NCBI GenBank assembly: GCA_027324805.1
Contig: DAHVRZ010000004.1
Coordinates: 1 to 61,863, forward strand
Length of the DNA: 61,863 nucleotides
Source: Candidatus Parcubacteria bacterium
GTDB lineage: Bacteria > Patescibacteriota > Minisyncoccia > UBA6257 > 2-01-FULL-56-20
Direction: 5' to 3'
Part shown: in pieces, positions 991 to 57,767 of the stretch
How the letters are laid out: every line of letters starts with the position of its first letter
Position numbering within the stretch: the first letter of the stretch is position 1
Program-made: the position numbers and the translations under genes
The notes under the pieces: model-generated
What the model was told of the DNA's origin: nothing
Database searches by the model: none
The model's input: only the letters and a program-made list of their open reading frames with translations

Positions 991-1095
991 TTACCCCTCC
1001 AAACCGCAGGATTTCCGATGCAATGTTCGACCGGATAACTGATAATATAATATCAATATATTCGAATAACGTCAAATAATGAAGCGGGTGAAATA

Positions 1096-1123
1096 AAGAC
1101 AGCCCTTTTTAAGGGGCTGTCTT
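1096..1123 (-). terminator. rho-independent terminator-like hairpin downstream of 1156..2430
   Basis: AAGACAGCCC / GGGCTGTCTT 10-bp inverted repeat with a short loop. A T-rich tract follows on the minus strand. Confidence 0.6.
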
Positions 1124-1155
1124 GCGTGCTGCACGCTCGGCTCGACCAACCGCAA

Positions 1156-2430: not shown

Positions 2431-2579
2431 CTTTTTGAATCTAATAATTGGTTTTTTTGTTTTTGATGTGACCGACCTTCAAAAACGATCGACCCGCCCC
2501 GCCGGACCGCAAGGCTCCGTATCATTATTATATGACGTTCTGGGGAAAGAATTGTTACAAAATCAAAAAAGCCTTCTTT

Positions 2580-3062
2580 TCAGGAATTTTTTCGCGCAGA
2601 TGCCGCAGGGTTCAAACGCCAGGTTTCATAATTCAATATTGTTGCAAAAGCCACCCAAAGCATATAAGGAACCATGAGCCAGGCGGCAAGAGTATTGATC
2701 CCAAAAAAAAGAATAATGGCCGCAATAATACAAAGAAGGAGGGCGATAAGTTCAGCGAGTGCCGCGCCAAGGCGCTTTGCTCCAAAAAACAACGGCGTCC
2801 AAACGGCATTGAGTGCGAGCTGGACCACAAAAACATCGAATGCCGTCCCTATTCCATTCGATTGGAACACAAAATATGCCGCTATCCCCTGCAATGCATA
2901 AAGGATCGTCCAAACCGGCCCGAAGATCCAGTTTGGCGGATTGAAGGACGGCTTCTTCAGTTTGGCATACCACCCGGGAATCGCGCGCACCGTAAAAAAA
3001 CTTCCGCTTACTCCAACCGCTTCGCATACAACCACAAAGATAAAAAGCAATATCCAGTCCAT
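2580..3062 (-). CDS. tspO: TspO/MBR family tryptophan-rich sensory protein
   Basis: WYAKLKKPSFNPPNWIFGPVWTILY and LNAVWTPLFF motifs with five hydrophobic helices. Start trimmed to the ATG at 3062 (MDWILL), which clears the upstream MFS gene. Confidence 0.8.
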   Translation of the reverse strand: MDWILLFIFVVVCEAVGVSGSFFTVRAIPGWYAKLKKPSFNPPNWIFGPVWTILYALQGIAAYFVFQSNGIGTAFDVFVVQLALNAVWTPLFFGAKRLGAALAELIALLLCIIAAIILFFGINTLAAWLMVPYMLWVAFATILNYETWRLNPAASARKNS

Positions 3063-3106
3063 GATGTAATCATACCATTCACTAAAACAATAAGGTTTTT
3101 CACTTA

Positions 3107-4321
3107 TTAAGGGACATTTTGAACAAATGCCGGCTTCCGCTTCCACTGAAGCCATCCCCATCCCGCGGCGATAAGCGCCACCACGCCGCCGATGACGATC
3201 GGCACGCGTGCGCCGAATGCATCAGCGAGCCACCCGGAGATCGGACCGCCGATCGGCGTCGTGCCGATAAGAAGCACCAACTGGAGCGCGAGTACGCGTC
3301 CGTGCATCTCATGTTTGGACTCCGTCTGCACGAGCGTCGTTGTAGCCGTCATATAAAGGATGCTCGACATGCCGACAAGGAACATGGCTGCGGCCGCAAA
3401 GACGATATTCGTCGTCGCGGCGAGTACAAGCATGGTGATGCCGAGCGCTGCAGCGCCGAGGATGATATGGTTCATCTTCACCCAATTGCGCCGGGCAACG
3501 ATCAATGTGCATACGACGGCGCCCGCGCTGAAGATCGAGTAGAGAACGGTAAACGCCGTATCGCCGCCGCCGAGCGACATATGAACAAAAAGAGGCAGTG
3601 TGACCGTAAAGTTATACGACATCACGCCGATGAGCGCGAGGATCGTAAAATTTATCAAAAGCAACGGCGTTCCAAGTACGTAGCGCAGGCCCTCGCGTAT
3701 CTCCCCTTTCGTTCGCTCCTTCGGCGCACGCCGATGAAGATCTTCCGTGCGCATCATGGCGAGCGCGATCAAGACGGCAATGTACGTAAACGCATCGATC
3801 GCAAAACACCAGCCATATCCGGTCGTCACGATAAGAAGTCCCGCAAGCGCCGGACCAAGAATCCTCGGAACATTCATGGTCGTGCTGTAGAGCACGACGG
3901 CATTGGCAAGATCGTCGGGCGGTGCCATCTCGCTCACGAACGAACGGCGAAGCGGATTGTCAAAAGAAAGGAAGATGCCGCCAAACCCCGCGAGAATATA
4001 AAGTGCCGCGATCGGCGGATGCGGCATGAATGCCACGATCGCAAGCCCGAACGACTGCGCCATTTCGAAGCTTTGCGTGATGAACAGCATCTTCCGCTTA
4101 TCCACGCGATCCGCAATGGCACCGGCCCAAGCCGAAAGGAAAAGGATGGGGCCGTACTGAAAGGCCGCCAGGAGACCCACATCAACGCCGCTCCCGGTGA
4201 TCTTCAGCACCAGCAGTGTTATGGCGACGTTCGTCAGCCAATTCCCCGTATTGGAGATCAGCTGGCCGAAAAAGAAAAGGCGAAAATTGCGGTTTCGCAG
4301 CGAACGAAAAGTTTCTTTCAT
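3107..4321 (-). CDS. MFS transporter
   Basis: 404 aa with about 12 hydrophobic helices. N-terminus RNRNFRLFFFGQLISNTGNWL and ADRVDKRK loop are typical of MFS exporters. Confidence 0.85.
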   Translation of the reverse strand: MKETFRSLRNRNFRLFFFGQLISNTGNWLTNVAITLLVLKITGSGVDVGLLAAFQYGPILFLSAWAGAIADRVDKRKMLFITQSFEMAQSFGLAIVAFMPHPPIAALYILAGFGGIFLSFDNPLRRSFVSEMAPPDDLANAVVLYSTTMNVPRILGPALAGLLIVTTGYGWCFAIDAFTYIAVLIALAMMRTEDLHRRAPKERTKGEIREGLRYVLGTPLLLINFTILALIGVMSYNFTVTLPLFVHMSLGGGDTAFTVLYSIFSAGAVVCTLIVARRNWVKMNHIILGAAALGITMLVLAATTNIVFAAAAMFLVGMSSILYMTATTTLVQTESKHEMHGRVLALQLVLLIGTTPIGGPISGWLADAFGARVPIVIGGVVALIAAGWGWLQWKRKPAFVQNVP

Positions 4322-4337
4322 TGTTATGTAGATGACT

Positions 4338-4440
4338 ATAACAAAAAAGCAGTTCCATTGCTGAAGCTGTTTCCATATTCTTTCTGCGGTGCTCGCTTAC
4401 CGCTTCGCCCACTGAGGGCGGACTTTTTCGCAAAAAACGC
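4338..4440 (-). repeat. degenerate rpsI 3'-end copy (reads ...KVRPQWAKR-stop) plus flank homologous to 14680-14745
   Basis: ttaccgcttcgcccactg at 4397-4414 matches the true rpsI end at 14848-14865. The neighbouring aaacagcttcagcaatgg block is also shared with the rpsI downstream region. Confidence 0.7.
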
Positions 4441-4564
4441 CATAATTCGCGTTGCTAAGTTCAAATAGAACCGATAACCCTTTTTCACCGTGAATACGAT
4501 TCAACCCATTCTCCTGTGTTGTATATGATAAAATAAAGTAAAGTTCTGCAATTATCCCACTTTC

Positions 4565-5752
4565 ATGCACCACCGTTTCGCTTTCACCCTCATCGAACTG
4601 CTCGTGGTTATTGCCATCATCGCGATCCTTGCGGTGGTCGTTGTATTGGTTTTGAATCCCGCCCAGCTTCTCGCGCAATCGAGGGATGCGAACCGTATTT
4701 CGGATCTCTCAACCCTCAAATCCGCACTTTCCATATATCAGACGGATCAAGGAACGGGTGGTATGGGAACGTCGAGTATTATGTATGTTTCAGTTCCCGA
4801 CGCATCGTCCACCTGCGGCGACCTCGGGCTTCCGTCGGCCGGCCCGGATGTCTGGAGCTGTAGCAGTATCTCCGCATATCGTAGCACAAACGGCACAGGT
4901 TGGATCCCTGTGAATTTCGCCGCCATCAGCTCCGGCGCCCCGTTTGGTTCACTTCCGGTGGATCCGATCAATCAAACGAGCAGCGGACTTTATTACACCT
5001 ATGAGACCAGCGGCTCGACCTATGAACTGACCGCAGCACTGGAATCATCAAAATACGCCTCAACCGCACAGAATGACGGGGGTCAGTATGCCGACCTCTA
5101 CGAACAAGGGACAAGTCTCGCTTTGGTACCGGTGGATTTTCATATGGAATCGCAACCAATCCAACTCCGCGGAAGCGCAATCGGAGCTACCAGTGGTACA
5201 TCGATCACGCTCAATCTTCCCTCGGCATCTCAGGTCGGAGATTTGGCGATTATTTTTGCTCACGCGAACCAAAGCGCTATTTCCATTTCGCCTTCCGGAT
5301 GGACCCAGCTCAATCAAGCTGGAGGGGCATACATTGCCGGATGGACATTTTCAAAAACTCTCACCAGTTCGGACATATCTACCGGTTCTGTCACCATAAC
5401 TTTCAATAGTAATAATGGCCCTGCCGCCGCTTTGGCCGTTTTCGCCGGCAGCACGGGAGGGATAAGAGAAACAGACGTCCTTGAATATGGTGGCACTTTC
5501 AGCTCGCCAATTGTTGGGCCATCCACATCAGCAGCAGTGGCTGGTACAGATGCAGCTCTTTTATTTGGTGGGACCAATGCCACGTCGACTGATACTATTA
5601 ACTACGGAGTCACACAGCAGACTACTAACACAAATTCGGAGGTGCTCACATTCCAAACGGTTTCCGGCGCGGGATCGTTCACTCCAACGTTCAGCTATAG
5701 CAATCCCGGCACTGGATATTATCAATCAATAGTAATCGTAAAACATAACTAA
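4565..5752 (+). CDS. type IV pilin-like protein with a large C-terminal domain
   Basis: N-terminus MHHRFAFTLIELLVVIAIIAILAVVVV is a prepilin cleavage/methylation-type motif. About 350 aa of Ser/Thr/Gly-rich globular region follows. Confidence 0.8.
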   Translation: MHHRFAFTLIELLVVIAIIAILAVVVVLVLNPAQLLAQSRDANRISDLSTLKSALSIYQTDQGTGGMGTSSIMYVSVPDASSTCGDLGLPSAGPDVWSCSSISAYRSTNGTGWIPVNFAAISSGAPFGSLPVDPINQTSSGLYYTYETSGSTYELTAALESSKYASTAQNDGGQYADLYEQGTSLALVPVDFHMESQPIQLRGSAIGATSGTSITLNLPSASQVGDLAIIFAHANQSAISISPSGWTQLNQAGGAYIAGWTFSKTLTSSDISTGSVTITFNSNNGPAAALAVFAGSTGGIRETDVLEYGGTFSSPIVGPSTSAAVAGTDAALLFGGTNATSTDTINYGVTQQTTNTNSEVLTFQTVSGAGSFTPTFSYSNPGTGYYQSIVIVKHN

Positions 5753-5825
5753 CCCGCAGACGGACAACTCTTTAGTAAAGTAGCCCGACGAAAATCTTAT
5801 ACCGCACCCTTCCTGCAAAATCTCC

Positions 5826-6061
5826 GTCTGCGGCGCTAGCCGCTATGGCGCAACAAAACTCCCCATCAGGCAAGTTTCCTGTGGGGAGTTTTTGAGTTTT
5901 TCCCTTGTTTTCCCGGGCCCCTGGGCCACCCCAGAAATTATGGCTCGTTTAGCGCTTCGCCCACTGGCACGCTCTGGGCTGTGGCGAACCTTAGAGGCCG
6001 TTTTGTGCCCGTATTTCCTACTGCGATTTTCATCGCGCAAGAATCGCGCAGAAGATCGCGC
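5826..6061 (-). pseudogene. rpsI 3' fragment plus rpsI 3' flank (repeat copy A)
   Basis: 5826-5966 aligns by eye with 14716-14865 (rpsI stop, 3' UTR, terminator, about 30 nt beyond). 5943-6061 aligns with 13439-13558. One minus frame reads FLRDENRSRKYGHKTA, compared with true S9 FLTRDSRMVERKKYGKRKA, and is frame-broken. Confidence 0.75.
5859..5893. terminator. bidirectional terminator hairpin
   Basis: ctccccatcagg-caagtt-tcctgtggggag followed by TTTTT. The same hairpin occurs at 14761-14793. Confidence 0.7.
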
Positions 6062-6107
6062 CATGATTTCACTTTACTCGTAAAGTACGGGGTGGGCTTT
6101 AGGTTTT

Positions 6108-6632
6108 TTATATACGATCTCCATTCCGTGAGATCGGTATGCCCAACCGTCGTGCCTCCGCGATAAGATACCGCTGGATCACGCGAGCATTCCGAAGGTG
6201 CGCTTTATTGCGGACGACGTTCTTTTTGCGATGAGCGAAAAACTGTCGTCGGTGATCTTTTGCGGATGGCGCAAGCAGAATGACATCCCCGGTCTTTAGA
6301 AATCGGTGAGGGTCAAGAAATGCCGCCTCGAGGACGAACCCCCGACGGTGCTTCTTCAGCCACTTGACGATGGTAGAATGGAGCGCCTTACGCACATTTA
6401 GAAACCCCGCGATGATATTCTTCTCGGTCCGCTTCCCGATAGCCTGGTACGCTTCGGTAGTGGGCAGGAAATAAAACGGTGATTGCGATGTCGTTCTCCC
6501 TTTTTGGGCTATCTTCCTCAACATATCCGCCTCAATATGCGGCACGCCATACTTTTTTGCGAGACGCCGGGCAAGCTTCGTCTTGCCGGAACCCGGTACG
6601 CCGTAGATGATGAATTTTATCGGGCGGTTCAT
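6108..6632 (-). CDS. P-loop NTPase/kinase-like protein
   Basis: Walker A GVPGSGKTKLA at the N-terminus, size about 174 aa. Last gene of the 10-gene operon. Confidence 0.65.
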   Translation of the reverse strand: MNRPIKFIIYGVPGSGKTKLARRLAKKYGVPHIEADMLRKIAQKGRTTSQSPFYFLPTTEAYQAIGKRTEKNIIAGFLNVRKALHSTIVKWLKKHRRGFVLEAAFLDPHRFLKTGDVILLAPSAKDHRRQFFAHRKKNVVRNKAHLRNARVIQRYLIAEARRLGIPISRNGDRI

Positions 6633-7267
6633 TCTGTAAAAGGAATGGTAATTTCTTCAATCAAACGCGCTTTTTCATCGCCGTCCTCTTTTCTGTAAAA
6701 AAACACCGCAACACCTGAAACAGTTATCTCCTTTCCTTCAATAGGTTTGAGATTTCTCTCCGATTCTGCGATATCAGCCTGCGGTTTATCAAAATCAATT
6801 TCGCCAAGCGTGATATGAGGATCGAATTCCTCTTCCGGAAAATTGTATGCTTTCAAGCTTTCACGACTTCCGTCGGTAAGGATACCTTGCTTCTCCAATT
6901 CCTTCTGCTTCTTCTCGCGGATAAAGGGACTGCGATATGGATTCGCCATCTCCGTTATCTTCTCATGTAATTCCTTCAATTTCTCTTTATTGGAAATATC
7001 CATAATATAGAGATTCCGATGACGATCCTCCTCGCGCCTCACTTTGGGCGCAAGCAAGAAGATTGTAAACGGCTTCACATGAAACCTGCGCAATTCATCC
7101 AACAACTTCGGATACCCTTCTGCCGTATAGCTATCAAGATAGAGCGTAATGTGCGGCTCCGATTTATAGCTGCTCCCGTATTCAGAAATGTAGCGTTGTT
7201 TCTCCGTCCGTAGAGCGCGAGTAATCTCCTCGGGAAACGTCACGCGGATACTGATGTCATATTTCAC
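6629..7267 (-). CDS. 2H phosphoesterase superfamily protein (LigT/CPDase-like)
   Basis: Two H-x-T-x motifs, EPHITLY and DPHITLGE, spaced as in 2',3'-cyclic phosphodiesterase/2'-5' RNA ligase folds. 4-nt overlaps with both neighbours. Confidence 0.75.
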   Translation of the reverse strand: MKYDISIRVTFPEEITRALRTEKQRYISEYGSSYKSEPHITLYLDSYTAEGYPKLLDELRRFHVKPFTIFLLAPKVRREEDRHRNLYIMDISNKEKLKELHEKITEMANPYRSPFIREKKQKELEKQGILTDGSRESLKAYNFPEEEFDPHITLGEIDFDKPQADIAESERNLKPIEGKEITVSGVAVFFYRKEDGDEKARLIEEITIPFTE

Positions 7268-7845
7268 AGTTTTAATAAATCTTCTAGTTCAGACAAAACG
7301 ATTGGTGTCTGCACAAAACCATCATCCGTCGTGATATGTCCCGCGCCGTGCAGCACTACGATCTTCGAGCCGAACTCGCTGAACCTCTGCTTATTTTCCT
7401 CGAACGAATCGTAGGGGTCGTTATCAGAAATGATCAGCGTTGATTTCGGCAACACGGTTTTGATTTTGACCGGATTGATAGGCCGCTCGATCCACGGTCT
7501 CGCGATAGCCCGCGTTTCGTCGTCCTCGAGGTTCTTCAGGTTAAACCATCCAGAGACGAACACCGCCCCACCGACCGTCTTCATCGGTTCAAAACGATGT
7601 GCGTCGAGATACCGGAGGATAGCTTGGCAACCGATGCTGTGGCCCACGAAATACGTGTTCTTGTCCGGTACGTCTATGACCGTCGCCAACTTCCCTACCC
7701 ATTTTTCAATGACTGGCGTGTCGCTGTCTGGCATCTCCGGGACGAGAACTTCGTATCCTTCTTTTTCAAGCTGCGCTTTGAGCCATGGCCGCCAATCGTC
7801 ATTCGGGCCGCCCGACCAACGATGGACGATGATGATTCTTTTCAT
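7264..7845 (-). CDS. alpha/beta serine hydrolase (YdeN/RBBP9-like)
   Basis: Nucleophile elbow GHSIGC, C-terminal GAGH, about 190 aa, N-terminus IIIVHRWSG. Confidence 0.7.
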   Translation of the reverse strand: MKRIIIVHRWSGGPNDDWRPWLKAQLEKEGYEVLVPEMPDSDTPVIEKWVGKLATVIDVPDKNTYFVGHSIGCQAILRYLDAHRFEPMKTVGGAVFVSGWFNLKNLEDDETRAIARPWIERPINPVKIKTVLPKSTLIISDNDPYDSFEENKQRFSEFGSKIVVLHGAGHITTDDGFVQTPIVLSELEDLLKL

Positions 7846-8567
7846 TGTTCTTTCTCTAATATGTCAGGAATTTTATTTCTCGGGATTTTTCTTACTTTCA
7901 CTTTATCCATTTTGAGGATATGGGCTTTCATGAGCCGGTGCAAACCATCGAGGATAAGCCAGCGGCCCTTGTTTTCCATGATGTCGATCGGATATTTCAG
8001 ATCGCAATTCATCGTGCGCCCGTATTCTGCCTTGTGGGATTCTGGATGCTCTATGATCTCGCGCGATGTGAGATTGTATCTGCCGCCGTCCCTCCAATGA
8101 AATGGGACGTCGAAATGCCATGCGAGTTCGCTTATCGGCATGTCTTCCGTTGGAACATCGAGCGCCCACACCGCTTCGTTTTTCCAAGGGAACTCAAAGC
8201 CGACCTCCTTGATGATCTTGGGAAAATCGGCATCCCAATCCTTTACCGGAATGAAGTGAATTATCTTGACCGCCGTAGCCGGTCCCACCTCTTTGCCGGG
8301 ATAGTAGCTCCGATAGGCGGCATACATCGCTTCGTCGTCCGGGAAGCGCTCATGGCCCTCCCAGTCGTGGTCGTCCAACTCCTTGATCGGCTTCTCAACG
8401 ACCTCCGTGACGACGGCGCGGCTAAAGACCTTCTTCGTTTCCCAATTCACGAGTTCCGCCACGTCCCCCGCTTGCAAATTCTTATCGTCGAAAAGCCGCC
8501 ACGTTGTAGTTTTTTCGCCATCTGTTATCAGCTGCGCGAGCGCAGGGCGGAACTTGAGAGTTTTCAT
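7842..8567 (-). CDS. ASCH (PUA-like) domain fused to a ParB/Srx-like domain
   Basis: The N-terminal part (FRPALAQLITDGEKTTTWRLFD...GDVAELV) resembles ASCH. The C-terminal part contains WLILDGLHRLMKA, a DGxHR ParB-like nuclease/Srx motif. Start set to the ATG at 8567 (MKTLKF), directly after the upstream stop. Confidence 0.6.
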   Translation of the reverse strand: MKTLKFRPALAQLITDGEKTTTWRLFDDKNLQAGDVAELVNWETKKVFSRAVVTEVVEKPIKELDDHDWEGHERFPDDEAMYAAYRSYYPGKEVGPATAVKIIHFIPVKDWDADFPKIIKEVGFEFPWKNEAVWALDVPTEDMPISELAWHFDVPFHWRDGGRYNLTSREIIEHPESHKAEYGRTMNCDLKYPIDIMENKGRWLILDGLHRLMKAHILKMDKVKVRKIPRNKIPDILEKEQ

Positions 8568-8568
8568 G

Positions 8569-9324
8569 TCATTTAAATTCCAGATACAGCGGTAAATGGT
8601 CGGACACCTCATCCGACAAAACCTTGAAGTCCACCACGTCCACCTCCGGAGAAACCAGCATATAGTCGGAGAATCTCAATGGCTTCTTGTAATGGCTGCT
8701 CCGCGTTGAAGTGATTCCGTATTCCTTGATAAGGTTCCGCGTCGGGAGGCCCTCGATCATGCCGATGCTTTTCGTGTCCGGCTCCAAATTGAAGTCGCCG
8801 CAGATGATCTCTTTGCCAGTTACCTTGCTTGCGAGGCTGAGAATGCGTTTACTCTGCTCAAACCGCGCTTCGCTATCCTTTTTTATGCTTCCTTGCCATA
8901 ATCCGTGGACGTTGACAATCACATGACCGGCGACATTAACGGCAATCGACGCGCCCGCCGCAAAACCTCCATCGTAGTCATTCCATTTTGTTCCCAGATC
9001 GTATAACGTAACGCTCCCGACGAGGGATTGCTTCAAATTCTTCTTCACAAAACAGGCGACGCCGTAATCGAAATCCAATCCCTTCAAGCTCTCGCTGTAA
9101 TAACCGCCTTCGCCGTATCCAGAAAAGTAGCTCGTATGACCCGGGAGCAGACCGACGATCCGCTCATAGCAATCTTTCATTTCCTCACGGGCGGTCTTTC
9201 CGGTGCCGCCTTTGAGGACTTCCTGAAAACAGAATACGTCCGTTTCCAATGCGTGTTCTTTGATAAAGACAACGAGCGGATCGGATATCTTGCCGCCCCA
9301 GATATTGAGCGAGACGAGCTTCAT
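8569..9324 (-). CDS. endonuclease/exonuclease/phosphatase (EEP) family protein
   Basis: MKLVSLNIWGG, FCFQEV and C-terminal SDHLPLYLEF motifs. Confidence 0.8.
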   Translation of the reverse strand: MKLVSLNIWGGKISDPLVVFIKEHALETDVFCFQEVLKGGTGKTAREEMKDCYERIVGLLPGHTSYFSGYGEGGYYSESLKGLDFDYGVACFVKKNLKQSLVGSVTLYDLGTKWNDYDGGFAAGASIAVNVAGHVIVNVHGLWQGSIKKDSEARFEQSKRILSLASKVTGKEIICGDFNLEPDTKSIGMIEGLPTRNLIKEYGITSTRSSHYKKPLRFSDYMLVSPEVDVVDFKVLSDEVSDHLPLYLEFK

Positions 9325-9328
9325 GGTT

Positions 9329-10549
9329 TCATTCGGTGCCTTTGTTATCCCTGACCCCTCTTACCTCCTTCACGAAAAAGTCGACGCCGTCCGACAGGAC
9401 TTTGGCGTAGCCTGCGTTTTGAAACGCCCCTCCCCTCAACTCCCCATATTTCGCCCAGCCTGTGCGCATGAGGAACGTCCGAACGCATCCTCCGTGAGTT
9501 ACTACGAGTACGGTCTTTCCGGGGTACGCGGCCGCGATCTCTCGAAGTTGGACAATAAACCGGCTGACCACTTCTTCATCGCTTTCCATGTCGTCCGCGA
9601 AGCGGAACTTCCACTGTTCATCGTGTGATAGCTTCCCTTTTTCCATGAGGAGACGCTGCGCTGTTTCTTGAAAGGCCGAAGACGGCCCTCCTTCGAAGCG
9701 TCCGTATTTCCGCTCCCGCAGGAGCTTCGAGGTCTGTATGGCCAGCTGCCGGTCGAGCTTTATGATCTCGGCCGTCCTCACTGCCCTCGGCGAATCCGAC
9801 GAAAATGCCGCATCGAACCGAATTCCCTTCAGCTCTTGCGCGGTTGCCTCAACCTGTTTTACCCCTTCCGGCGTGAGCGGTGAATCCATCTGCCCCATGA
9901 CGGTATGATTCTTATTCCATTCCGTCTCGCCATGGCGCACGAGGTAAAGCGTGCAGTAATTTTTCTCCCGTTCTTTCAATGCGATGCCTTCCATCCTGAT
10001 CACGGACAGCATGCCGTCTATGCTCTCCAACTCCGCAAAGCCGCAGTCCTCGATCCTAACATCTCCCAATTTCAAGATTTCTCGGAAGACGAATGAGATC
10101 GGACCGCCATGGGAAAGGATCGCTATCGTTTGATACGGCTGTTTGGTGATGGCGTCGAGCGATTTCCGGATGCGCTCCCCGAAGCGTTCGTAGTTTTCGC
10201 TTTCCGGGACGGCATGCCGATGATTCTTCAGTGCCTCAACATGTTCCGGATGTTTCTCCTTCGCTTCGCTTTTCACCATGCCCGTGAGGATGCCATACAT
10301 GTTTCGTTCGCGGATATCGTGCACAACCTCGACTTTACATCCGATTTCTTTCGAAACGATTGCCGCTGTCTCTTGAGCGCGGATCTTCGGGCTGCAAAAG
10401 ATGATCTCAATACCGGAGTTTTTTAATTTGTCCGCCAGCTCGCGAGCCTGCGCTTCTCCCTCCTCGGTAAGGTGGTCATTGTAATCGCCGCCGAAGCGAT
10501 CTTCTAAATCACCTGTCGTTTGCCCATGCCTGATAAGATATATCTTCAT
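9329..10549 (-). CDS. tandem histidine phosphatase (phosphoglycerate mutase family) protein
   Basis: Two RHG modules, IYLIRHGQT at the N-terminus and LYLVRHGETEWN mid-protein, each followed by an SHGG/THGG-type motif. Confidence 0.85.
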   Translation of the reverse strand: MKIYLIRHGQTTGDLEDRFGGDYNDHLTEEGEAQARELADKLKNSGIEIIFCSPKIRAQETAAIVSKEIGCKVEVVHDIRERNMYGILTGMVKSEAKEKHPEHVEALKNHRHAVPESENYERFGERIRKSLDAITKQPYQTIAILSHGGPISFVFREILKLGDVRIEDCGFAELESIDGMLSVIRMEGIALKEREKNYCTLYLVRHGETEWNKNHTVMGQMDSPLTPEGVKQVEATAQELKGIRFDAAFSSDSPRAVRTAEIIKLDRQLAIQTSKLLRERKYGRFEGGPSSAFQETAQRLLMEKGKLSHDEQWKFRFADDMESDEEVVSRFIVQLREIAAAYPGKTVLVVTHGGCVRTFLMRTGWAKYGELRGGAFQNAGYAKVLSDGVDFFVKEVRGVRDNKGTE

Positions 10550-10995
10550 TTGAGCTTCGCGGTGATTTGTTTTGATATGTCCTGCAATTCCGCCTCCGGC
10601 GTCGTCTCGCGCGATCCGGGACGATAGAGGAACTTGCGCGGCTCATATTCGGTAATCCCTTCATCTCCAGTCTTGCGCGGGACAATATGGAGATGAAAGT
10701 GCGGAATGGACTGGCCCGCAATCTTTTCTTCGTTCCATACATGATGAAATCCTTCCGCGCCGAAGAGATCCTCGAGTGCCGCTTTTACCTCCGTCATGAG
10801 TGCGAATATCGCCGTCTTCTCGTCAGCGGTCAACTCTTCGAATTTCTGCACGTGCCGCACCGGCGCGACAAGCGTGTGGCCCGGCGCGATCGGAATGTTC
10901 GTCAAAAATGCCCACGCGAGACCGTTATTCTTGACCGTGCGGGTCTTGATTTCCGGCAGAGTGCAATAGACGCAGTCCATATTGATGATTGACAC
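10546..10995 (-). CDS. HIT family nucleotide hydrolase/transferase
   Basis: Histidine triad HFHLHIVPR. ATGA overlap with the downstream gene. Confidence 0.85.
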   Translation of the reverse strand: MSIINMDCVYCTLPEIKTRTVKNNGLAWAFLTNIPIAPGHTLVAPVRHVQKFEELTADEKTAIFALMTEVKAALEDLFGAEGFHHVWNEEKIAGQSIPHFHLHIVPRKTGDEGITEYEPRKFLYRPGSRETTPEAELQDISKQITAKLK

Positions 10996-10998
10996 GGG

Positions 10999-11553
10999 TT
11001 ATTTAATGAGCGCTTTCATTTTCTCAAAGAGATCCAACATATCCGGTCGTAGAATTAAATAAATGAATTTCTTCTTATCTTCATCACTCAAATGGCCCAA
11101 TGAGCCAATTGGCCGCGCCTCAAAACCCAACGCCTTTCCTTCTTCTATTTTCAGATCTCTGACATCGCCGTGATAGACATAGGCGTACTGCGCCCGGATC
11201 GTATTGTTGATCGTCTTGGTCGCGGGATCTTCCGACCGCTTATGAAGCGTAAGTATGAGATGAAGGTCGGCTGGATTTGGTATGACCCCGGTCTCCTCCT
11301 CCATCTCCTTGATCGCCGTCTTCTCGTATGAATCGCCCGGCTCCACATGGCCGCCTACGGTCGCGTCCAGAAGATCAGGGAACGTATCCTTGTCCTTCGC
11401 ACGATGCTGGAAAACGATTTCCCCTTTCGGCGTGACGAACCAGATGTGGATCTCGCGGTGGAGCAGGCCTTTCTCGTGGATTTCTCCACGGGTCGCCTGG
11501 CCAATCACACGATCATTTTCGTCGACAATTTCTAAAATGCGGCTGTCGGGCAT
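10999..11553 (-). CDS. NUDIX hydrolase
   Basis: Nudix box GGHVEPGDSYEKTAIKEMEEETGV. Confidence 0.85.
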   Translation of the reverse strand: MPDSRILEIVDENDRVIGQATRGEIHEKGLLHREIHIWFVTPKGEIVFQHRAKDKDTFPDLLDATVGGHVEPGDSYEKTAIKEMEEETGVIPNPADLHLILTLHKRSEDPATKTINNTIRAQYAYVYHGDVRDLKIEEGKALGFEARPIGSLGHLSDEDKKKFIYLILRPDMLDLFEKMKALIK

Positions 11554-11570
11554 GGAACAATAGATGGTGA

Positions 11571-12023
11571 TTAGCGTTTAATGGAAACCTTACTGATGTT
11601 GCCGTTCAAAAATATCGGCTGCAAGCCAAACACCTCCTCCATGAAACCGAGCCGTTCCGAGATGGGGTTCAAGATGAATATCGGTTTCTTCCGGTCAAAA
11701 CCGATCGCCGCCTCGATAAGCGTATTGCCGCCGATGTAGCCGGGGACGCCTTTCTTTTCATAATTGAGGATCAGCACCGCATCGCCGCTTTTCACTTTGT
11801 TAAGATGGTTTTTGATGAGCCACGTCTTGCGGGTATACTTCTTGGGGTCGGCAAACCACGTTTTATACGTCTCCACGCGGTAATCGCCGCTCTTCTTCAT
11901 CTTCATCGCCGTATATGGGAGCTTCACGGCGTAACCCATCTTCTTAAGCTCCTTTTCCACTTCGAGCGCCTGCTTGAAGAAGGCGGCGCTGCAACAAATG
12001 GTGATTGATTTCTTCTTTTTCAT
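11571..12023 (-). CDS. nucleoside 2-deoxyribosyltransferase/DNPH1-like fold protein (paralog B)
   Basis: DAVLILNYEKKGVPGYIGGNTLIEAAIGF parallels DAVLIVNLEKQGVKNYIGGNVLIEMGQAY in the upstream paralog. Start trimmed to MKKKKSITI at 12023. Confidence 0.55.
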   Translation of the reverse strand: MKKKKSITICCSAAFFKQALEVEKELKKMGYAVKLPYTAMKMKKSGDYRVETYKTWFADPKKYTRKTWLIKNHLNKVKSGDAVLILNYEKKGVPGYIGGNTLIEAAIGFDRKKPIFILNPISERLGFMEEVFGLQPIFLNGNISKVSIKR

Positions 12024-12024
12024 A

Positions 12025-12453
12025 TCAGGCAATGGCGGCGAGGTCGCCGTTAAGGCAGATGGGATCCATCGCTTCGATCTCATCCATGTACGAAAGCCCT
12101 TCCGGCATGCCGTTTAGGAAGAAGATCTTCTTGCCATTCACGTAGGCCTGTCCCATCTCTATGAGGACGTTGCCGCCGATATAGTTCTTCACGCCCTGCT
12201 TCTCAAGATTCACAATGAGCACGGCATCGCTCGCGAGGATGTTCCCATAATGTTCATTGAGGTAATTGTTCTCCCGTTTGATCGCGGCACGTTCGCCGTT
12301 GCGCCAGCGCGTTACGATGTCCTGCTTGTCGCCGCGGGCAAACGCTTCGTAATCTGGATGTATCCAGCCGTCATAGCCGAGTTCACGCAGCCGATCTTTA
12401 CAGGCAACCATTTCCTTGTAGAAATGGCTGCTTCCCAGAACGTAAATCTTCAT
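12025..12453 (-). CDS. nucleoside 2-deoxyribosyltransferase/DNPH1-like fold protein (paralog A)
   Basis: MKIYVLGSS start, a conserved acidic residue in the IGGNVLIEMG block, about 140 aa flavodoxin-like pattern. First gene of the operon. Confidence 0.55.
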   Translation of the reverse strand: MKIYVLGSSHFYKEMVACKDRLRELGYDGWIHPDYEAFARGDKQDIVTRWRNGERAAIKRENNYLNEHYGNILASDAVLIVNLEKQGVKNYIGGNVLIEMGQAYVNGKKIFFLNGMPEGLSYMDEIEAMDPICLNGDLAAIA

Positions 12454-12460
12454 GACTCAT

Positions 12461-12466
12461 ATTGTA
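12461..12466 (-). promoter_or_regulatory. -10 element (TACAAT) 7 nt upstream of the operon's first ATG, a leaderless geometry
   Basis: The minus strand reads TACAAT-atgagtc-ATG. No Shine-Dalgarno sequence is present. Confidence 0.45.
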
Positions 12467-12621
12467 GGGCGGCTTCGCCAAAAACGGAAGCGCTCCCCGA
12501 TGTCCGAATTCTGCACCCTTACCGCCGCCACTATCGGGACGCGAGCTACAAAACGTCATCTTTTACAGCATTGAGAATGCTCCCTTTTATTTTCTCCGCG
12601 TTCCCGTGCTTCATCATGCCG

Positions 12622-12652
12622 AAAAAGGGCGATCCTCGCATGAGGACCGCCC
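12622..12652 (-). terminator. rho-independent terminator downstream of 12810..13283
   Basis: gggcggtcctc-atgc-gaggatcgccc hairpin followed by TTTTT on the minus strand. Confidence 0.65.
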
Positions 12653-12809
12653 TTTGGGATGCCGAATAGTTCGGCGAAATTATTGCCATTAGGTCACAGG
12701 AGCTGATGTACTGCGCCCGCTTTGAAGCGGTGTTCTGCTTCTTTCCATATGAGGCCAGTGTAATGGTCCGCGGTGGTGCGCAGGGGCTGTGCATGTAAAG
12801 CACATTAAA

Positions 12810-13283
12810 CTATCGTTGCTCTCCGGCGCGAAGCGGGAAAGGACCTCTTTTCGCCCCCCGAGAAGAGAAACGATAATTTACACCGTTATGCAGAAGTACG
12901 AGATTAAGCCTCGTAAACCAATAACGGTAATATTCCTTTTGGCCACAAACAGAAAGAGGAAGAACGCAGCCCGGTTCCTTCCGTACCGCTTCCATAATCG
13001 CTCGTTGCTCCGAAGTCCATGGAAGTTCCATAATTTTTACCCAATCAGCCGATTCAAGCGGTCGGCTGGAAGGATAAAACGATAACTTCTTCTTCCGTCG
13101 CACGAGCGAAATGTGAGCGTTTACCTTTGGCGAGTCAATATTTATGAAGACTTGCCCTAATTGAAGCCCTTCAGTTGTCGCCCATGCTTGAATGAGCATC
13201 AATAGTTTTTCCTTGGCCTCCATAGCCATCTCCTCGCGAAATATCGCTGAGCATTTTATACCATTTTTTATTAATTTTTGCAA
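12810..13283 (-). CDS. hypothetical protein
   Basis: 157-aa ORF with ordinary composition, bracketed by terminators. The start is uncertain (alternative MAMEAKE). Confidence 0.4.
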   Translation of the reverse strand: MQKLIKNGIKCSAIFREEMAMEAKEKLLMLIQAWATTEGLQLGQVFINIDSPKVNAHISLVRRKKKLSFYPSSRPLESADWVKIMELPWTSEQRAIMEAVRKEPGCVLPLSVCGQKEYYRYWFTRLNLVLLHNGVNYRFSSRGAKRGPFPLRAGEQR

Positions 13284-13334
13284 TCCAATACAAAAATCGC
13301 CCTTTCAAGCGGTCTTTGTTTGCTGACAATCCAT

Positions 13335-13371
13335 AAAAAGTGAAAGGCTGGCAGCGCAAAGCACACCAGCC
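13335..13371 (-). terminator. terminator-like hairpin following rpsI fragment copy B
   Basis: ggctgg...ccagcc stem followed by a T-rich run on the minus strand. Confidence 0.45.
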
Positions 13372-13438
13372 CTGCCCATAGCAGCCCTCTGTGAAGAATG
13401 AGAGCGGAGGATTGAGTATGGGAAATCAGCACCGAAGC

Positions 13439-13558
13439 GCTCGTTTAGCGCTTCGCCCACTGGCACGCTCTGGGCTGTGGCGAACTTTGGGAGGCCGTTT
13501 TGTGCCCGTATTTCCTACTGCGATTTTCATCGCGCAAGAATCGCGCGGAAGATCGCGC
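13439..13558 (-). pseudogene. rpsI 3' fragment (repeat copy B)
   Basis: About 120 nt nearly identical to 5943-6061. It ends with cagtgggcgaagcgctaa (QWAKR-stop), like true rpsI. Confidence 0.75.
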
Positions 13559-13646
13559 AAGGATTTTTGTATGCGGAACCGTCTATGTTCACTTCAATGG
13601 TCAATCCTTCTTCCATTCACGCTCATTCTACCGCTGTATCTGCCAA

Positions 13647-13671
13647 CCAAAAAGCCCCGGTTTGCCGAGGC
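13647..13671 (-). terminator. rho-independent terminator (module also present at 14135-14158)
   Basis: gcctcgg-caaa-ccggggc followed by TTTTTGG on the minus strand. Confidence 0.65.
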
Positions 13672-13695
13672 TTCCTGTTCTAACTTGGTCTGCGC

Positions 13696-14037: not shown

Positions 14038-14134
14038 GTTTGCCTCCTATTCTGGTTTGACCCATTCATATGAAAGCATTTCGTCCGCCTTTCTGCTGGC
14101 CAAAGTCTAGCATGATATTTGAAATTAAAGCAAC

Positions 14135-14158
14135 CAAAAAGCCCCGGTTTACCGAGGC
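14135..14158 (-). terminator. rho-independent terminator following rpsI fragment copy E
   Basis: gcctcgg-taaa-ccggggc followed by TTTTTGG on the minus strand. Near-duplicate of 13647-13671. Confidence 0.6.
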
Positions 14159-14190
14159 CTTTTGTTCTGTAGCTAGTCCGCAGCACTCTC

Positions 14191-14237
14191 CTAGCGCTTC
14201 GCCCACTGCAACCCTTTGGGCAGATATGGGCTTTAGG
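14191..14237 (-). repeat. short rpsI 3'-end copy (repeat copy E)
   Basis: ctagcgcttcgcccactg (QWAKR-stop) plus about 25 nt resembling copies A and B. It lies directly after the stop of 14240..14674. Confidence 0.6.
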
Positions 14238-14239
14238 AC

Positions 14240-14674
14240 TCAGCGTTTCGCCGCCTCTCCCTGGAAGAACCAATGGACGCCGTATCTGTCGGCAAGGTGT
14301 CCATAACTCCCGAACGGCATATCCCGCAGATCATCGAGCAGCGACGGATCCGCGCCGACGGCGAGCTTGTCGAATATCGTCCTCAATTCTTCATACGTTT
14401 CCCCATTAATGTACATCGCGACAGTATTTCCCTTCACGGGCTTGCGCGTGGGATGGAGCCAGTCAGTTGCGGAAAATGAAACCGCGCCGCTCTCAAGGTG
14501 TGCGTGGGCAACTTTTTGATGCTGCTCCGGTGGCATCTGCGCTTTCATGGGAGTATCGCCGACCTTCGTCACGGTCAGCTCGCCGCCGAGGCACGACTGA
14601 TAGAACGCCATCGCATCGGCACAGTCGCCGTCGAACAAAAGGAATGGAGTGAGGTTCAGCATATCTTGCATCAT
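14240..14674 (-). CDS. VOC/glyoxalase superfamily protein (PhnB-like)
   Basis: LTPFLLFDGDCADAMAFYQSCLGGEL N-terminus and FGSYGHLADRYGVHW C-terminus are typical of PhnB-like VOC proteins. Start trimmed to the MMQDM cluster, because the longer ORF runs through a hairpin. Confidence 0.7.
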   Translation of the reverse strand: MMQDMLNLTPFLLFDGDCADAMAFYQSCLGGELTVTKVGDTPMKAQMPPEQHQKVAHAHLESGAVSFSATDWLHPTRKPVKGNTVAMYINGETYEELRTIFDKLAVGADPSLLDDLRDMPFGSYGHLADRYGVHWFFQGEAAKR

Positions 14675-14715
14675 AACAGAAAACAGCCCCATTGCTGAAG
14701 CTGTTTTCTGAGATT

Positions 14716-14847
14716 CCAATCTTATGTCTGCGGCGCTAGCCGCTACACGGCAACAAAACGCCCCATCAGGCAAGTTTCCTGTGGGGAGTTTTTAAGATTC
14801 CCCTTGTTTCACCGAGCTTCCGGGCCACCCCAGAAATTATGGCTCGT
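14716..14847 (-). repeat. rpsI 3' flank homologous to repeat copy A
   Basis: Aligns by eye with 5826-5948, with most positions identical and a few indels. Confidence 0.7.
14761..14793. terminator. rpsI terminator (bidirectional hairpin)
   Basis: ccccatcagg-caagtt-tcctgtgggg with T-runs on both strands. Confidence 0.7.
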
Positions 14848-15306
14848 CTAGCGTTTCGCCCACTGAGGAGATCTGCGCGCTTTCCGCTTGCCGTACTTCT
14901 TGCGTTCCACCATGCGCGAATCGCGGGTGAGGAATCCCATAACACGGAGGCGCGGCTTCCAGTCGGCGCTCTTTGCAACGATTGCACGGGAAAGTCCGAG
15001 GCGGACCGCTTCGGCTTGGGCGTGGATACCGCCGCCGGAAACATTGACGGAAACATCGAGATCGGCGATTTGGAGCTGTTCGAGCGGAGCCTTCGCGGCG
15101 GCAATAAGGCGCGGGAGCGTGAAATAGCTCTTGATGTCCATTCCGTTCACGGTCACCTTGCCCTTGCCGGCAACGATGCGCACGCGCGCGATCGCGGTTT
15201 TGCGGCGGCCGACGGCCTCGGTGTAACGACCCGAAGCGGGCGCGTGATGCGCCGCGATGTGGTGACGCGGTGTGGGTTCCTTTTTGGTTGTCTCGGTGAT
15301 TGCCAT
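14848..15306 (-). CDS. rpsI: 30S ribosomal protein S9
   Basis: GRRKTAIARV ... GGGIHAQAEA ... C-terminus KRKARRSPQWAKR. Start trimmed to MAITETT, just after the rplM stop. Confidence 0.95.
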   Translation of the reverse strand: MAITETTKKEPTPRHHIAAHHAPASGRYTEAVGRRKTAIARVRIVAGKGKVTVNGMDIKSYFTLPRLIAAAKAPLEQLQIADLDVSVNVSGGGIHAQAEAVRLGLSRAIVAKSADWKPRLRVMGFLTRDSRMVERKKYGKRKARRSPQWAKR

Positions 15307-15328
15307 TGGTGTCGTAGGTCGCGAACGG

Positions 15329-15673
15329 TTACTTCTCGACGAAAATGAGGTTTTTGATGCGCCGCTGCGTGAGGAAGTTGCGCGGAAGCATCTTGCGCAC
15401 GGCATGGCGGAGCACCCAGCGGGGATCCTTTGCCATCGCCTCCTCGAGACGCTTCTCTTTAAGATGGCCGACGTAGCCGGTATGGTTGTAATAGATCTTA
15501 TCGGTCATCTTATTGCCGGTCACGACAAGGCCATCAACATTCTTCACATAGACCTTATCGTCGCTCACCGCGTTGCTCTTGTATGCCGCCGATTTCTTGC
15601 CCTGCAAAATGAGGGAGATGTCGGTGGCCAGGCGGCCGAGTACTTTGTTTTTTGCGTCAATATGATAATCCAT
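15329..15673 (-). CDS. rplM: 50S ribosomal protein L13 (short form)
   Basis: VLGRLATDISLILQGK and YYNHTGYVGHLK motifs. Confidence 0.93.
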   Translation of the reverse strand: MDYHIDAKNKVLGRLATDISLILQGKKSAAYKSNAVSDDKVYVKNVDGLVVTGNKMTDKIYYNHTGYVGHLKEKRLEEAMAKDPRWVLRHAVRKMLPRNFLTQRRIKNLIFVEK

Positions 15674-16094: not shown

Positions 16095-16850
16095 TTATTT
16101 CTTCTTCGCCGGAGCCTTCTTCTTCGCCTCGGCCTTCGGTGCTTCGAACTCCTTTACCTCGACGACGCCCACTTTTTCGAAATGGTCCTTTAGGATCACC
16201 GAAGCCTTATGGAGCGCGGAGGAGGGGCTGATGGTGCCGTTGGTACCGATCTCGATGCGAAGCTTGTTGTAGTCGGTGCGATCCCCTACGCGCATATCAT
16301 CAACCGTGTAGTTCACGCGGATGACCGGCGTGAAGATGGCGTCGATCGCGATCGTGCCGATCGGGAGACGACCCTCCGTGCGGCGGCCCTCCGAGGCAAC
16401 ATAGCCGAGCCCGCGCTCGACACGCACCTCAATATCGATCTCCGCGTCCTTGGCGGTGAGATGGCCGAGCACTTCATCGGGATTTATGAGTTCGACATCG
16501 GAATTGATCTCGATATCGCCGCCTGTGATCTCGCCCTCGCCCTTCATCTTGAGCGAAAGGACCTGAGGTTCGTCGGTGTGCATTCGGAAATACAGCTTTT
16601 TGAAATTGAGCGAAAACTCGACGATGTCTTCCTGAAGTCCGGGGAGGGTAGAAAATTCGTGGGGCACACCCTTGATTTTAATCTCCGTCACCGCAGCGCC
16701 CGGCAGGGATGAAAGAAGTGCGCGGCGAAGTGCGGTACCGACCGTAAGGCCGTAGCCCGCGTAAAGGCCTTCGATCTCGAAGATGCCTTCCTTCGCATCC
16801 TCGGAGATGGTTTTTATGGAAACACTCGAACTGAGATGGGAGAACTCCAT
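16095..16850 (-). CDS. rpoA: DNA-directed RNA polymerase alpha subunit, N-terminal domain only
   Basis: GYGLTVGTALRRALLSSLPGAAV and the dimerisation/insert-domain pattern. It ends in a Lys/Ala tail (APKAEAKKKAPAKKK) about 250 aa in, with no HhH C-terminal domain. Start trimmed to MEFSHL. Confidence 0.9.
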   Translation of the reverse strand: MEFSHLSSSVSIKTISEDAKEGIFEIEGLYAGYGLTVGTALRRALLSSLPGAAVTEIKIKGVPHEFSTLPGLQEDIVEFSLNFKKLYFRMHTDEPQVLSLKMKGEGEITGGDIEINSDVELINPDEVLGHLTAKDAEIDIEVRVERGLGYVASEGRRTEGRLPIGTIAIDAIFTPVIRVNYTVDDMRVGDRTDYNKLRIEIGTNGTISPSSALHKASVILKDHFEKVGVVEVKEFEAPKAEAKKKAPAKKK

Positions 16851-16875
16851 GGGATTGATTATATATAATGGGGTT

Positions 16876-56003: not shown

Positions 56004-56079
56004 TGGAGCCACCTCCCGGATTCGAACCGGGGACCTTTGCTTTACGAAAGCACTGCTCTACCAGCTGAGCTAAGGTGGC
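56004..56079 (-). tRNA. tRNA-Thr (anticodon CGT), CCA encoded
   Basis: Hand-folded cloverleaf: acceptor gccacct/aggtggc, T arm cccgg-ttcgaat-ccggg, anticodon loop ttCGTaa. Confidence 0.88.
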
Positions 56080-56162
56080 AAACCGACCTCGCACTATCCA
56101 AGAAAATATAACCAAAATGGGGCGGTTATGCAATACGGGCACAGGGTGATACCATTGGGAAT

Positions 56163-56759: not shown

Positions 56760-56763
56760 GGTG

Positions 56764-56848: not shown

Positions 56849-56865
56849 AGCATTGTCCGTATCTG

Positions 56866-57738: not shown

Positions 57739-57767
57739 TCGCATAGCCCGCCGGCAAAACCATAATC

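Follow-up and report, generated by a model that had tools for sequence, protein, structure and literature searches.

Does a tight string of ten small-enzyme genes represent one dedicated pathway, or did these genes gather by accretion? This question is raised by positions 6108-12453 (minus strand) of contig DAHVRZ010000004.1 from Candidatus Parcubacteria bacterium (assembly GCA_027324805.1), whose full 61,863 nucleotides are called the window below. Our analysis revealed one species-specific combination of genes built on a conserved trio, namely the first three genes of the string. The reading that we prefer, and to which we give roughly an even chance (about 0.5), is that of a lineage-specific, co-transcribed accretion of small enzymes that would act in parallel on small-molecule nucleotides, and neither on nucleic-acid ends nor along one linear pathway.

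The list of open reading frames (ORFs) of the window showed ten of them in a tight array, and public gene calls for identical DNA agree on all ten, genes 2, 4, and 7 being given the shorter start. From 5' to 3' on their own strand, and with the names used throughout, the encoded proteins are the following:

12025-12453, minus strand: P1, a protein similar to nucleoside 2'-deoxyribosyltransferases (NDT) and DNPH1, 142 aa
11571-12023 (longest ORF to 12083), minus strand: P2, paralog of P1, 150 aa
10999-11553, minus strand: P3, Nudix hydrolase of the YfcD/DR0079/IDI-like branch, 184 aa
10546-10980 (alternative GTG start at 10995), minus strand: P4, HIT-family hydrolase/transferase, 144 aa
9329-10549, minus strand: P5, tandem double histidine phosphatase, 406 aa
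8569-9324, minus strand: P6, endonuclease/exonuclease/phosphatase (EEP) family, 251 aa
7842-8567 (longest ORF to 8612), minus strand: P7, ASCH domain (1-105) fused to a ParB/Srx-fold domain (~112-238), 241 aa
7264-7845, minus strand: P8, YdeN/RBBP9-type serine hydrolase, 193 aa
6629-7267, minus strand: P9, 2H phosphoesterase, 212 aa, GTG start
6108-6632, minus strand: P10, P-loop kinase of small-molecule type, 174 aa

The original prediction, made from the sequence alone, had described ten minus-strand genes with four stop/start overlaps of 4 nt, and the coordinates of these overlaps proved exact (6629-6632, 7264-7267, 7842-7845, and 10546-10549, the last one between the genes of P4 and P5). 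The remaining intergenic gaps measure 1, 17, 18 (3 if the GTG start of P4 is used), 4, and 1 nt. The proposed family list was likewise confirmed by Pfam or supported by AlphaFold2 (AF2) models and Foldseek: P3 to P6, P8, and P9 all reached the Pfam gathering score with their catalytic motifs present, and a motif check found the signature catalytic motifs intact in all ten proteins. That the operon is made only of enzymes acting on nucleotides or nucleic-acid ends, as had been claimed, is an interpretation, and for P5, P6, P8, and P10 such an action is conjectural.

Neither P1 nor P2 matched any model of Pfam (E<=0.01, PF05014 included) or NCBIfam. The AF2 model of P1, built with a homolog alignment, reached a predicted local distance difference test (pLDDT) score of 95.6, and the Foldseek list obtained with it was led by the NDT 9emx, DNPH1, YtoQ, and the CMP N-glycosidase BcmB (E ~1e-3, template-modelling (TM) score ~0.5), which supports a flavodoxin-like NDT fold for the modelled protein despite the marginal E value. 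P1 carries Tyr4 in the sequence IYVLGS (from residue 3), Asp76 in SDA (from residue 75), and Glu99 in IGGNVLIEMG, which we take to be the positions of the NDT/DNPH1 catalytic residues (the Glu within G-x-x-x-E-x-G); Glu99 was invariant in the 29-31 aligned sequences. P2 is ~31 % identical to P1 and keeps the Asp and the Glu, with a Thr in place of the N-terminal Tyr, and P1 contains an insertion of ~45 residues (30-72). The only sequence matches of P1 and P2 in the PDB were designed Kelch repeat proteins, discarded as spurious. P3 matched PF00293 (E 3e-13, above the gathering score) and the NCBIfam model for YfcD (2e-18, below its cut-off), its closest PDB relatives being YfcD (2fkb, 1.5e-11) and DR0079 (1q27, 1.8e-8); its Nudix box is GHVEPGDSYEKTAIKEMEEETGV, with D and K variants.

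A total of 627 homologs of P1 were found, the best 120 of these 627 at 69-91 % identity, and the named organisms among them are Paceibacterota, Parcubacteria, and Patescibacteria. Across Patescibacteria, the proteins of the trio are 60-90 % identical. Analysis of P1 neighbourhoods at 46 loci from species-representative genomes revealed a variable gene order. A P2-like gene adjoins P1 in ~13 of the 46, and an ortholog of P3 (phmmer E 4e-39 to 5e-71) does so in nine; in a further three, the adjoining Nudix match is weaker. Seven of the P2-like neighbours in other genomes matched PF05014 at E<=1e-3 (best 1e-8). Loci of other genomes are here labelled L with a number. Among metagenomic contigs, L013 presented the order P1-P2-Nudix, with a P2 ortholog 84 % identical to ours, and L015 and L016 presented P1-Nudix. 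A Pfam census of the 148 ORFs located within two genes on either side of P1 counted 17 members of NUDIX, 7 of PF05014, 5 of UDG, 2 each of MazG and His_Phos_1, and 1 each of Ham1 and HD_3. As a control, 148 ORFs of the same loci located at least six genes away from P1 included fewer than two NUDIX members (17/148 vs at most 1/148, Fisher p at most 9e-5). Because P2-like and Nudix genes recur beside P1, and because NUDIX is enriched near it as compared with far from it, we conclude that P1-P3 is a real, old, and conserved module of Patescibacteria and the only part of the string that forms a recurrent neighbourhood. It is for these first three genes that clustering by theme goes beyond chance. 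In other genomes, homologs of the trio lie together as a unit, and those of the other proteins were found in changing company.

The complete set of ten genes was detected only in three contigs of one population, mutually 99.98 % identical: the window itself, one from NCBI assembly GCA_021793615.1, and one from an ENA assembly. Because the full set is confined to this population, the ten-gene combination is not a conserved, co-inherited system. Relatives were examined from four anchors (P1, P7, P6, and P9), and outside the trio the families recur only in changing pairs or fusions within other long strings of small genes. The closest relative of P7, in L008, encodes the ASCH::ParB protein (74 % identical) in one string with an EEP gene (80 %), with VOC, PF05014-type NDT, and metallo-beta-lactamase genes between them. 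Relatives of the ASCH domain of P7 (71-81 % identity) were found fused to Nudix, methyltransferase, or cupin domains; those of its ParB-like domain (55-67 %) appeared alone or fused to Nudix, GrpB, cytidine/dCMP deaminase, SET, or, in reverse order, ASCH. The two domains of P7, each of which was also found by itself, move independently. In addition, a stand-alone ParB-like gene adjoins two Nudix genes in L006 and L007.

From the P6 anchor, for which a metagenome scan gave 341 relatives (one of them, in L048, 54 % identical), 80 metagenomic loci were inspected, showing a P8 homolog adjoining P6 in L073, L094, and L100 and 5 kb off in L121, and P1 in L133. EEP was dropped as a neighbourhood anchor, since these 80 loci, many of them on short contigs, showed no conserved neighbourhood save the occasional P8 and the one P1. 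In L048, the EEP gene adjoins a single-domain histidine phosphatase within a co-directional string of ~20 genes (1458-11480), which also holds three further Nudix genes, SET, methyltransferase, an NDT-like gene, MazG, and homologs of P1-P3. Single-domain relatives of P5 are located near P1 or P6 homologs in L026, L047, L048, and L056. From the P9 anchor, a 51 % identical homolog was found in L147 within another long string (645-10002), in the order 2H, DUF5674, Nudix, peptidase S51, two PNPOx, Nudix, HD, Nudix, AAA_33 kinase, and peptidase C39, followed by further genes, VOC, and RidA. The L048 and L147 strings, each of ~20 co-directional small genes, have several families in common, and strings of this type are rich in Nudix, HD, MazG, NDT-like, EEP, His phosphatase, kinase, VOC, and peptidase S51/C39 genes. 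Finally, a single ORF of L028 (8470-9585) encodes a serine hydrolase of P8 type (48 %) fused to a Nudix protein of P3 type (61 %), and adjoins a P2-like gene and P1.

What emerges is a loosely knit network centred on Nudix, in which small hydrolases and transferases directed at nucleotides are again and again strung together in Patescibacteria, in varying combinations. The original prediction had suggested a dedicated pathway for processing or sanitising scavenged nucleic acids and modified nucleotides. Members of several families do lie together or in one polypeptide in other Patescibacteria, which agrees with a theme of scavenging and sanitising nucleotides; the locus does not encode one dedicated pathway, and the full set exists in one population.

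An alternative explanation of the same data is that there is no functional unity past genes 1-3, the string being a by-product of compact co-directional genomes and of repeated insertion downstream of rpsI, with the other seven genes encoding unrelated, abundant housekeeping enzymes. The restriction of the full set to one population, the different neighbours of the relatives of genes 6, 7, and 9, and the location of the region in an insertion array (see below) all fit this view, as does the deviating composition of P9, which suggests a separate acquisition. The P9 gene is an outlier, with a GC content of 0.44 and a GC content at third codon positions (GC3) of 0.48, compared to a GC3 of 0.60-0.72 in neighbouring genes. 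Its family is rare, with 140 cluster representatives at E<=1e-3 and 9 at <=1e-30 among 1.84 billion. Because of this composition and rarity, P9 seems to have been acquired separately and later. However, the GC3 of the other nine genes matches that of host genes, and the four overlaps of 4 nt argue for a long co-expression. Moreover, links recur in unrelated genomes, including the fusions P8::Nudix, ASCH::Nudix, and ParB-like::Nudix and the pairs EEP with His phosphatase and EEP with P8, and because of these fusions and recurrent pairs a purely random string is unlikely. All this considered, we regard the absence of any unity beyond the trio as rather unlikely.

What the other seven proteins may act on was approached through their individual matches. 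P4 matched PF01230 (E 2e-21), with the histidine triad HFHLHIV from residue 94; P5 matched PF00300 over two stretches (E 2e-83), with RHG at 7 and 205 and S/T-HG at 146 and 351; P6 matched PF03372 (E 9e-10), with motifs LNIWG, FQE, GDFN, and SDH; and P8 matched PF06821 (E 4e-26), with GHSIG from residue 68. P9 was matched by PF13563, PF02834, and PF06299 (2_5_RNA_ligase2, LigT, and DUF1045) and presents HITL at 39 and 151, that is, two HxT motifs. P10 scored above the gathering score for AAA_17 and AAA_33, with the Walker A motif GVPGSGKT.

In P7, the N-terminal region matched PF04266 with 32.5 bits (cut-off 21.2) and contains GEKTTTWR from residue 17, corresponding to G-x-K-x-x-T-x-R. The AF2 model of the protein reached a pLDDT of 86. 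In Foldseek, its N-terminal half matched the N4-acetylcytidine (ac4C) amidohydrolase YqfB of E. coli (9kyf, E 4e-6, TMt 0.79) and other ASCH structures, and its C-terminal half matched sulfiredoxin (6ky4, 4e-3), then Noc, PadC, ParB, and SbnI. A weak sequence match of the latter half to SbnI covers the DGxHR region, and DGLHR is nearly invariant in relatives. As modelled, the C-terminal domain has a ParB/Srx fold with a putative phosphate-binding motif of the Gly-x-x-Arg type. The relatives found for this domain (7842-8230; ~130 aa, YPIDIMENKGRWLILDGLHRLMKA), proteins P0012-P0120, share 55-70 % identity with it, and those with an organism name are mostly Patescibacteria, one being labelled as a Pacearchaeota archaeon.

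The kinase, 2H, phosphatase, and HIT families could also be read as a set for RNA or DNA end healing, as the original prediction had considered. The 2H enzyme would open 2',3'-cyclic phosphates, the phosphatases would strip 3' or 2' phosphates, the kinase would act on 5'-OH ends, the HIT protein would de-adenylate the products of aborted ligation, and a ligase encoded elsewhere would seal the break. The four chemistries do lie in one operon with intact motifs, and overlaps of 4 nt join P7, P8, P9, and P10. Nevertheless, a Pfam analysis of the operon and its flanking genes detected no ligase, Hen1, RtcA/B, or nucleic-acid-binding domain. The best full-length models for P10 were 2-phosphoglycerate kinase and mevalonate-3-phosphate 5-kinase (weak, far below cut-offs), adenylate kinases of the PDB matched it at the P-loop only, and no polynucleotide kinase was listed for it in the NCBIfam-model or PDB searches. 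For P4, which has only 144 aa, the nearest models are the plain HIT domain PF01230 and those of Hint and ATP adenylyltransferase; aprataxin has an extra zinc-finger domain. The quartet of 2H, kinase, phosphatase, and HIT was not found together in any other locus examined, and even kinase, 2H, and phosphatase were absent as a combination from all 146 fetched loci outside the source population. With no ligase found and a kinase resembling small-molecule kinases, the end-healing proposal is weakly founded and in our opinion very unlikely. P9 also matches the phosphonate-operon type DUF1045/TIGR03223, a type that acts on a small cyclic phosphate. Because of this match, the models for P10, the YfcD/DR0079 affinity of P3, and the closeness of the ASCH domain to YqfB, we lean towards small molecules as substrates.

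A second proposal made for this locus was a conflict module, either anti-phage or based on a nucleotide signal or NAD/ADP-ribose (ADPr), carried on a mobile island; NDT/TIR-like proteins would make or destroy the signal, and Nudix, HIT, 2H, and phosphatases would process it. Indeed, the operon lies inside a variable, repeat-bounded island, TIR and ThsB domains appear in the fold list of P1, the HIT protein resembles the Thoeris-associated ThsC model, and one ASCH::ParB relative is located amid MazG, SLFN-helicase/GIY-YIG, and NYN genes. A search of PADLOC-DB v2, however, returned only generic matches, to HIT-family ThsC (1.6e-10) and short P-loop stretches (best 2.3e-6), none for the other eight proteins, and recognised no system. 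No sensor, effector, toxin, or recombinase gene was found, PHROGs gave generic family matches only, and scans of IMG/VR for relatives of P1 or P7 came back empty. P1, P3, and the ParB-like domain keep 55-90 % identity over many Patescibacteria, at loci where no such repeat-bounded array is seen, which we judge atypical for defence genes. The conflict module found no support in these data and appears highly improbable.

The operon does lie on an rpsI-linked island, as had been proposed. It is located immediately downstream of the rpsM-rpsK-rpsD-rpoA-rplQ-rplM-rpsI block, in a region where the last codons of rpsI (CAG TGG GCG AAA CGC TAG, encoding QWAKR-stop) recur as a core of direct repeats. 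The five cores (0.1 expected by chance) split the region of 4.4-14.9 kb into four segments, and the features of this array are as follows:

14848-14865, minus strand: 3' end of the real rpsI (QWAKR-stop), which serves as reference for the core (PF00380 on 14848-15405)
4398-4414, 5950-5966, 13446-13462, 14192-14208, and 14849-14865, minus strand: the five core copies
14240-14692: segment A, VOC/PhnB-like gene (PF06983), single gene adjoining rpsI
between cores 13446 and 14192: array segment 2, a 97-aa orphan
13439-13566, minus strand: upstream copy of a 127-nt repeat, in which a decayed and frame-shifted 3' end of rpsI is joined to the core, CAGTGGGCGAAGCGCTAA
7.5 kb: array segment 3, a 1-kb empty spacer plus the ten genes
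12454-13438: this spacer of ~1 kb upstream of the operon, in which neither a gene nor an RNA was recognised
5943-6069, minus strand: downstream copy of the 127-nt repeat (repeat families D1, D2, D4, D5)
4565-5752, plus strand: array segment 4, type IV pilin-like protein (395 aa, methylation motif at the N terminus)

The two copies of the 127-nt repeat flanking the operon segment are 96-98 % identical and, according to the alignment, correspond to an rpsI 3' end of another sequence type than that of the resident rpsI. Beyond the downstream copy, positions 5826-5942 hold a copy of the sequence and terminator that are found downstream of the real rpsI. Across the array, the GC content is somewhat reduced (0.49-0.52 vs 0.54-0.57). 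Taken together, the array looks like the product of tandem site-specific insertion at the rpsI 3' end. No recombinase was detected, either by Pfam on the neighbouring ORFs or by a phmmer search of the window in six frames with three recombinase queries, which together make a limited test, and no integrase, relaxase, or other mobility gene was found in the array or the window. Because no recombinase was found, the insertion mechanism is one that we infer. An integron reading of the array was rejected, as the repeats are rpsI 3' ends and not attC-like imperfect palindromes, and no IntI is present.

Within the spacer, no gene is called in public annotations of 12454-13438. An ORF at 12810-13283 had neither a Pfam match nor a homolog among 5.8 billion proteins; it was consequently dropped as a hidden mobility or regulatory gene and treated as non-coding or orphan. 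An Rfam search for a riboswitch or other RNA upstream of the operon gave nothing relevant, and the upstream 1.3 kb matched no plasmid. A TACAAT hexamer is present at 12461-12466 (minus strand), 7 nt before the ATG of P1, and a consensus scan placed a terminator-like hairpin just upstream of it (12499-12485).

Several other observations concern the array. Along with the core repeats there are two families of repeated hairpins with T runs behind them, judged by eye to be terminator-like (5858-5892, 14758-14792, 13644-13681, and 14131-14168); of these, the consensus terminator scan reported only the hairpin copy at 14135-14164. The pilin-like gene at 4565-5752 is the sole plus-strand gene of the repeat-bounded array, and VOC genes such as that of segment A also occur in the L008 and L147 strings. 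In another Patescibacterium, L076 (68-2328) presented an rpsI ending in PQWAKR, followed by a small ORF pair resembling HicB/HicA, a label read from the sequences alone, and then an EEP homolog; no core repeats were found at this locus. This hints at the end of the rpsI ribosomal operon as a general site for accessory genes.

Tandem accretion of integrative elements, whether mobilizable (IMEs) or conjugative (ICEs), and of decayed islands at the rpsI 3' end has been described in streptococci (PMC5357655; also PMC5090054, PMC4701971). The array described here shares with the streptococcal islands the target gene, direct repeats that contain the rpsI 3' end, the presence of several tandem segments, and the coexistence of long (127 nt) and short (~18-24 nt) repeats. 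It differs from them in that no mobility gene was found, in its very small segments, three of the four being single-gene, and in the phylum concerned.

Under the reading that we prefer, P1 and P2 would be two paralogous NDT/DNPH1-like subunits of a probably hetero-oligomeric N-glycosidase or base-exchange enzyme, and P3 a YfcD/DR0079-type Nudix pyrophosphohydrolase that supplies or removes its nucleotide substrate. To this core, seven further housecleaning or salvage enzymes would have been appended. P4 may hydrolyse nucleoside phosphoramidates or AppN-type compounds, P5 and P6 may carry out dephosphorylations, and P7 may de-acylate or recognise modified nucleosides of cytidine type, coupled to an NTP-binding domain. 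P8 would act on some ester, P9 would open 2',3'- or 1,2-cyclic phosphates, and P10 would re-phosphorylate. Together, they could recover usable nucleosides, bases, or nucleoside monophosphates (NMPs) from nucleotides that are scavenged, damaged, or modified, in a group that depends on salvage, and the string would have been placed in a variable array made by repeated site-specific insertion at the rpsI 3' end. The ten genes would be co-transcribed.

Several points weigh against this proposal. The substrates of all ten proteins are ones that we infer, and membership in the histidine phosphatase, EEP, serine hydrolase, and P-loop kinase families leaves the chemistry unfixed. The Foldseek support for P1 is marginal (E 1e-3), with TIR domains lower in the same list. 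Associations outside the trio are sparse: seven contexts of full-length or C-domain relatives of P7 share almost nothing with the operon, L008 being the exception, and 73 of the 80 EEP loci showed no other family of the operon, as judged by single-sequence phmmer on contigs with a median length of 3.7 kb. Regarding co-transcription, the promoter-like element claimed at 12461-12466 amounts to the TACAAT hexamer, and scanning for the sigma-70 consensus revealed no full promoter at this place. Moreover, long co-directional runs are usual in Patescibacteria, so that close packing is weak evidence of a common function.

A more far-reaching version of the preferred proposal was also considered, in which the trio and the ASCH::ParB/Srx protein, together with the fusion partners of the latter (Nudix, cytidine/dCMP deaminase, GrpB, and SET), would mark an undescribed salvage route specific to Patescibacteria and DPANN archaea, for handling nucleotides of cytidine type, or modified pyrimidine ones, that come from the RNA or DNA of the host. 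In this version, the two NDT-like proteins would make up a hetero-oligomeric N-glycosidase or base exchanger under the control of the ParB-fold domain, itself an NTP-dependent switch or kinase, and the string would be a mobile cassette for salvage that a recombinase acting in trans captured at rpsI. We offer this as speculation and consider it a long shot.

In order to place these results, the operon was compared with known systems. House-cleaning enzyme sets include Nudix, MazG, Ham1/ITPase, HIT, HD, and dUTPase, and nucleoside salvage enzymes include nucleoside 2'-deoxyribosyltransferases, DNPH1, and CMP N-glycosidases of the BcmB/MilB type. The operon draws on the same superfamilies, P1 having the NDT/DNPH1 fold and the Tyr/Asp/Glu motif positions, and the neighbours of P1 homologs are Nudix, MazG, Ham1, HD, and UDG genes. 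House-cleaning enzymes, which are usually scattered in genomes, are here strung together, and unlike the known NDT and DNPH1 proteins, P1 and P2 fall below the PF05014 threshold and form a paralogous pair, P1 with its ~45-residue insertion. Pnkp-Hen1 and RtcA/RtcB operons and the Trl1-type healing domains serve RNA repair and unite the chemistries of a kinase, a 2H/cyclic phosphodiesterase, and a phosphatase. The operon also combines these three families; in contrast to the repair operons, it has no ligase, methyltransferase, or RtcB, and its combination is not conserved in other loci. As for P7, a 2025 survey of the ParB-CTPase fold described fusions to ASCH, enriched in archaea, or to DUF3850, enriched in phages (PMC12704722). 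P7 likewise has ASCH and a ParB/Srx-fold domain in one polypeptide, but its ParB-like domain is minimal (~130 aa), lacks a helix-turn-helix (HTH), is conserved in Patescibacteria, and is also fused to Nudix, GrpB, deaminase, and SET domains.

No described system with the combination of this operon was found in literature searches, in keeping with the original prediction, which had not recognised it as a described one. Fusions of the ParB fold to ASCH (PMC12704722), housecleaning enzymes, and rpsI-targeted accretion are already known. So far as the literature searches go, the P1-P2-Nudix module, the minimal, very conserved ParB-like domain with its spectrum of fusions, and the way in which Patescibacteria string such enzymes together appear to be undescribed.

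Two further features of the window lie apart from these subjects. RpoA (16095-16913, 251-272 aa) showed Pfam matches to the N-terminal and insert domains only, with no match listed for the alpha C-terminal domain. Five tRNA genes (Thr-CGT, Ser-TGA, Ala-GGC, Arg-CCT, and Ser-CGA) are clustered at 56004-57958.

Patescibacteria, also called the Candidate Phyla Radiation (CPR), are generally reported to be without de novo nucleotide synthesis, and the findings presented here bear on how they acquire nucleotides and clean them up. The ten-gene operon is not to be treated as a new system; rather, it points to two candidates, neither of which carries a functional annotation. The first is the very conserved module of two NDT/DNPH1-like paralogs and a YfcD-type Nudix, and the second is the minimal ParB/Srx-fold domain repeatedly fused to nucleotide-modifying enzymes. 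In addition, the end of a ribosomal-protein gene can be a multi-copy insertion site in this phylum, which bears on how such tiny genomes gain accessory genes.

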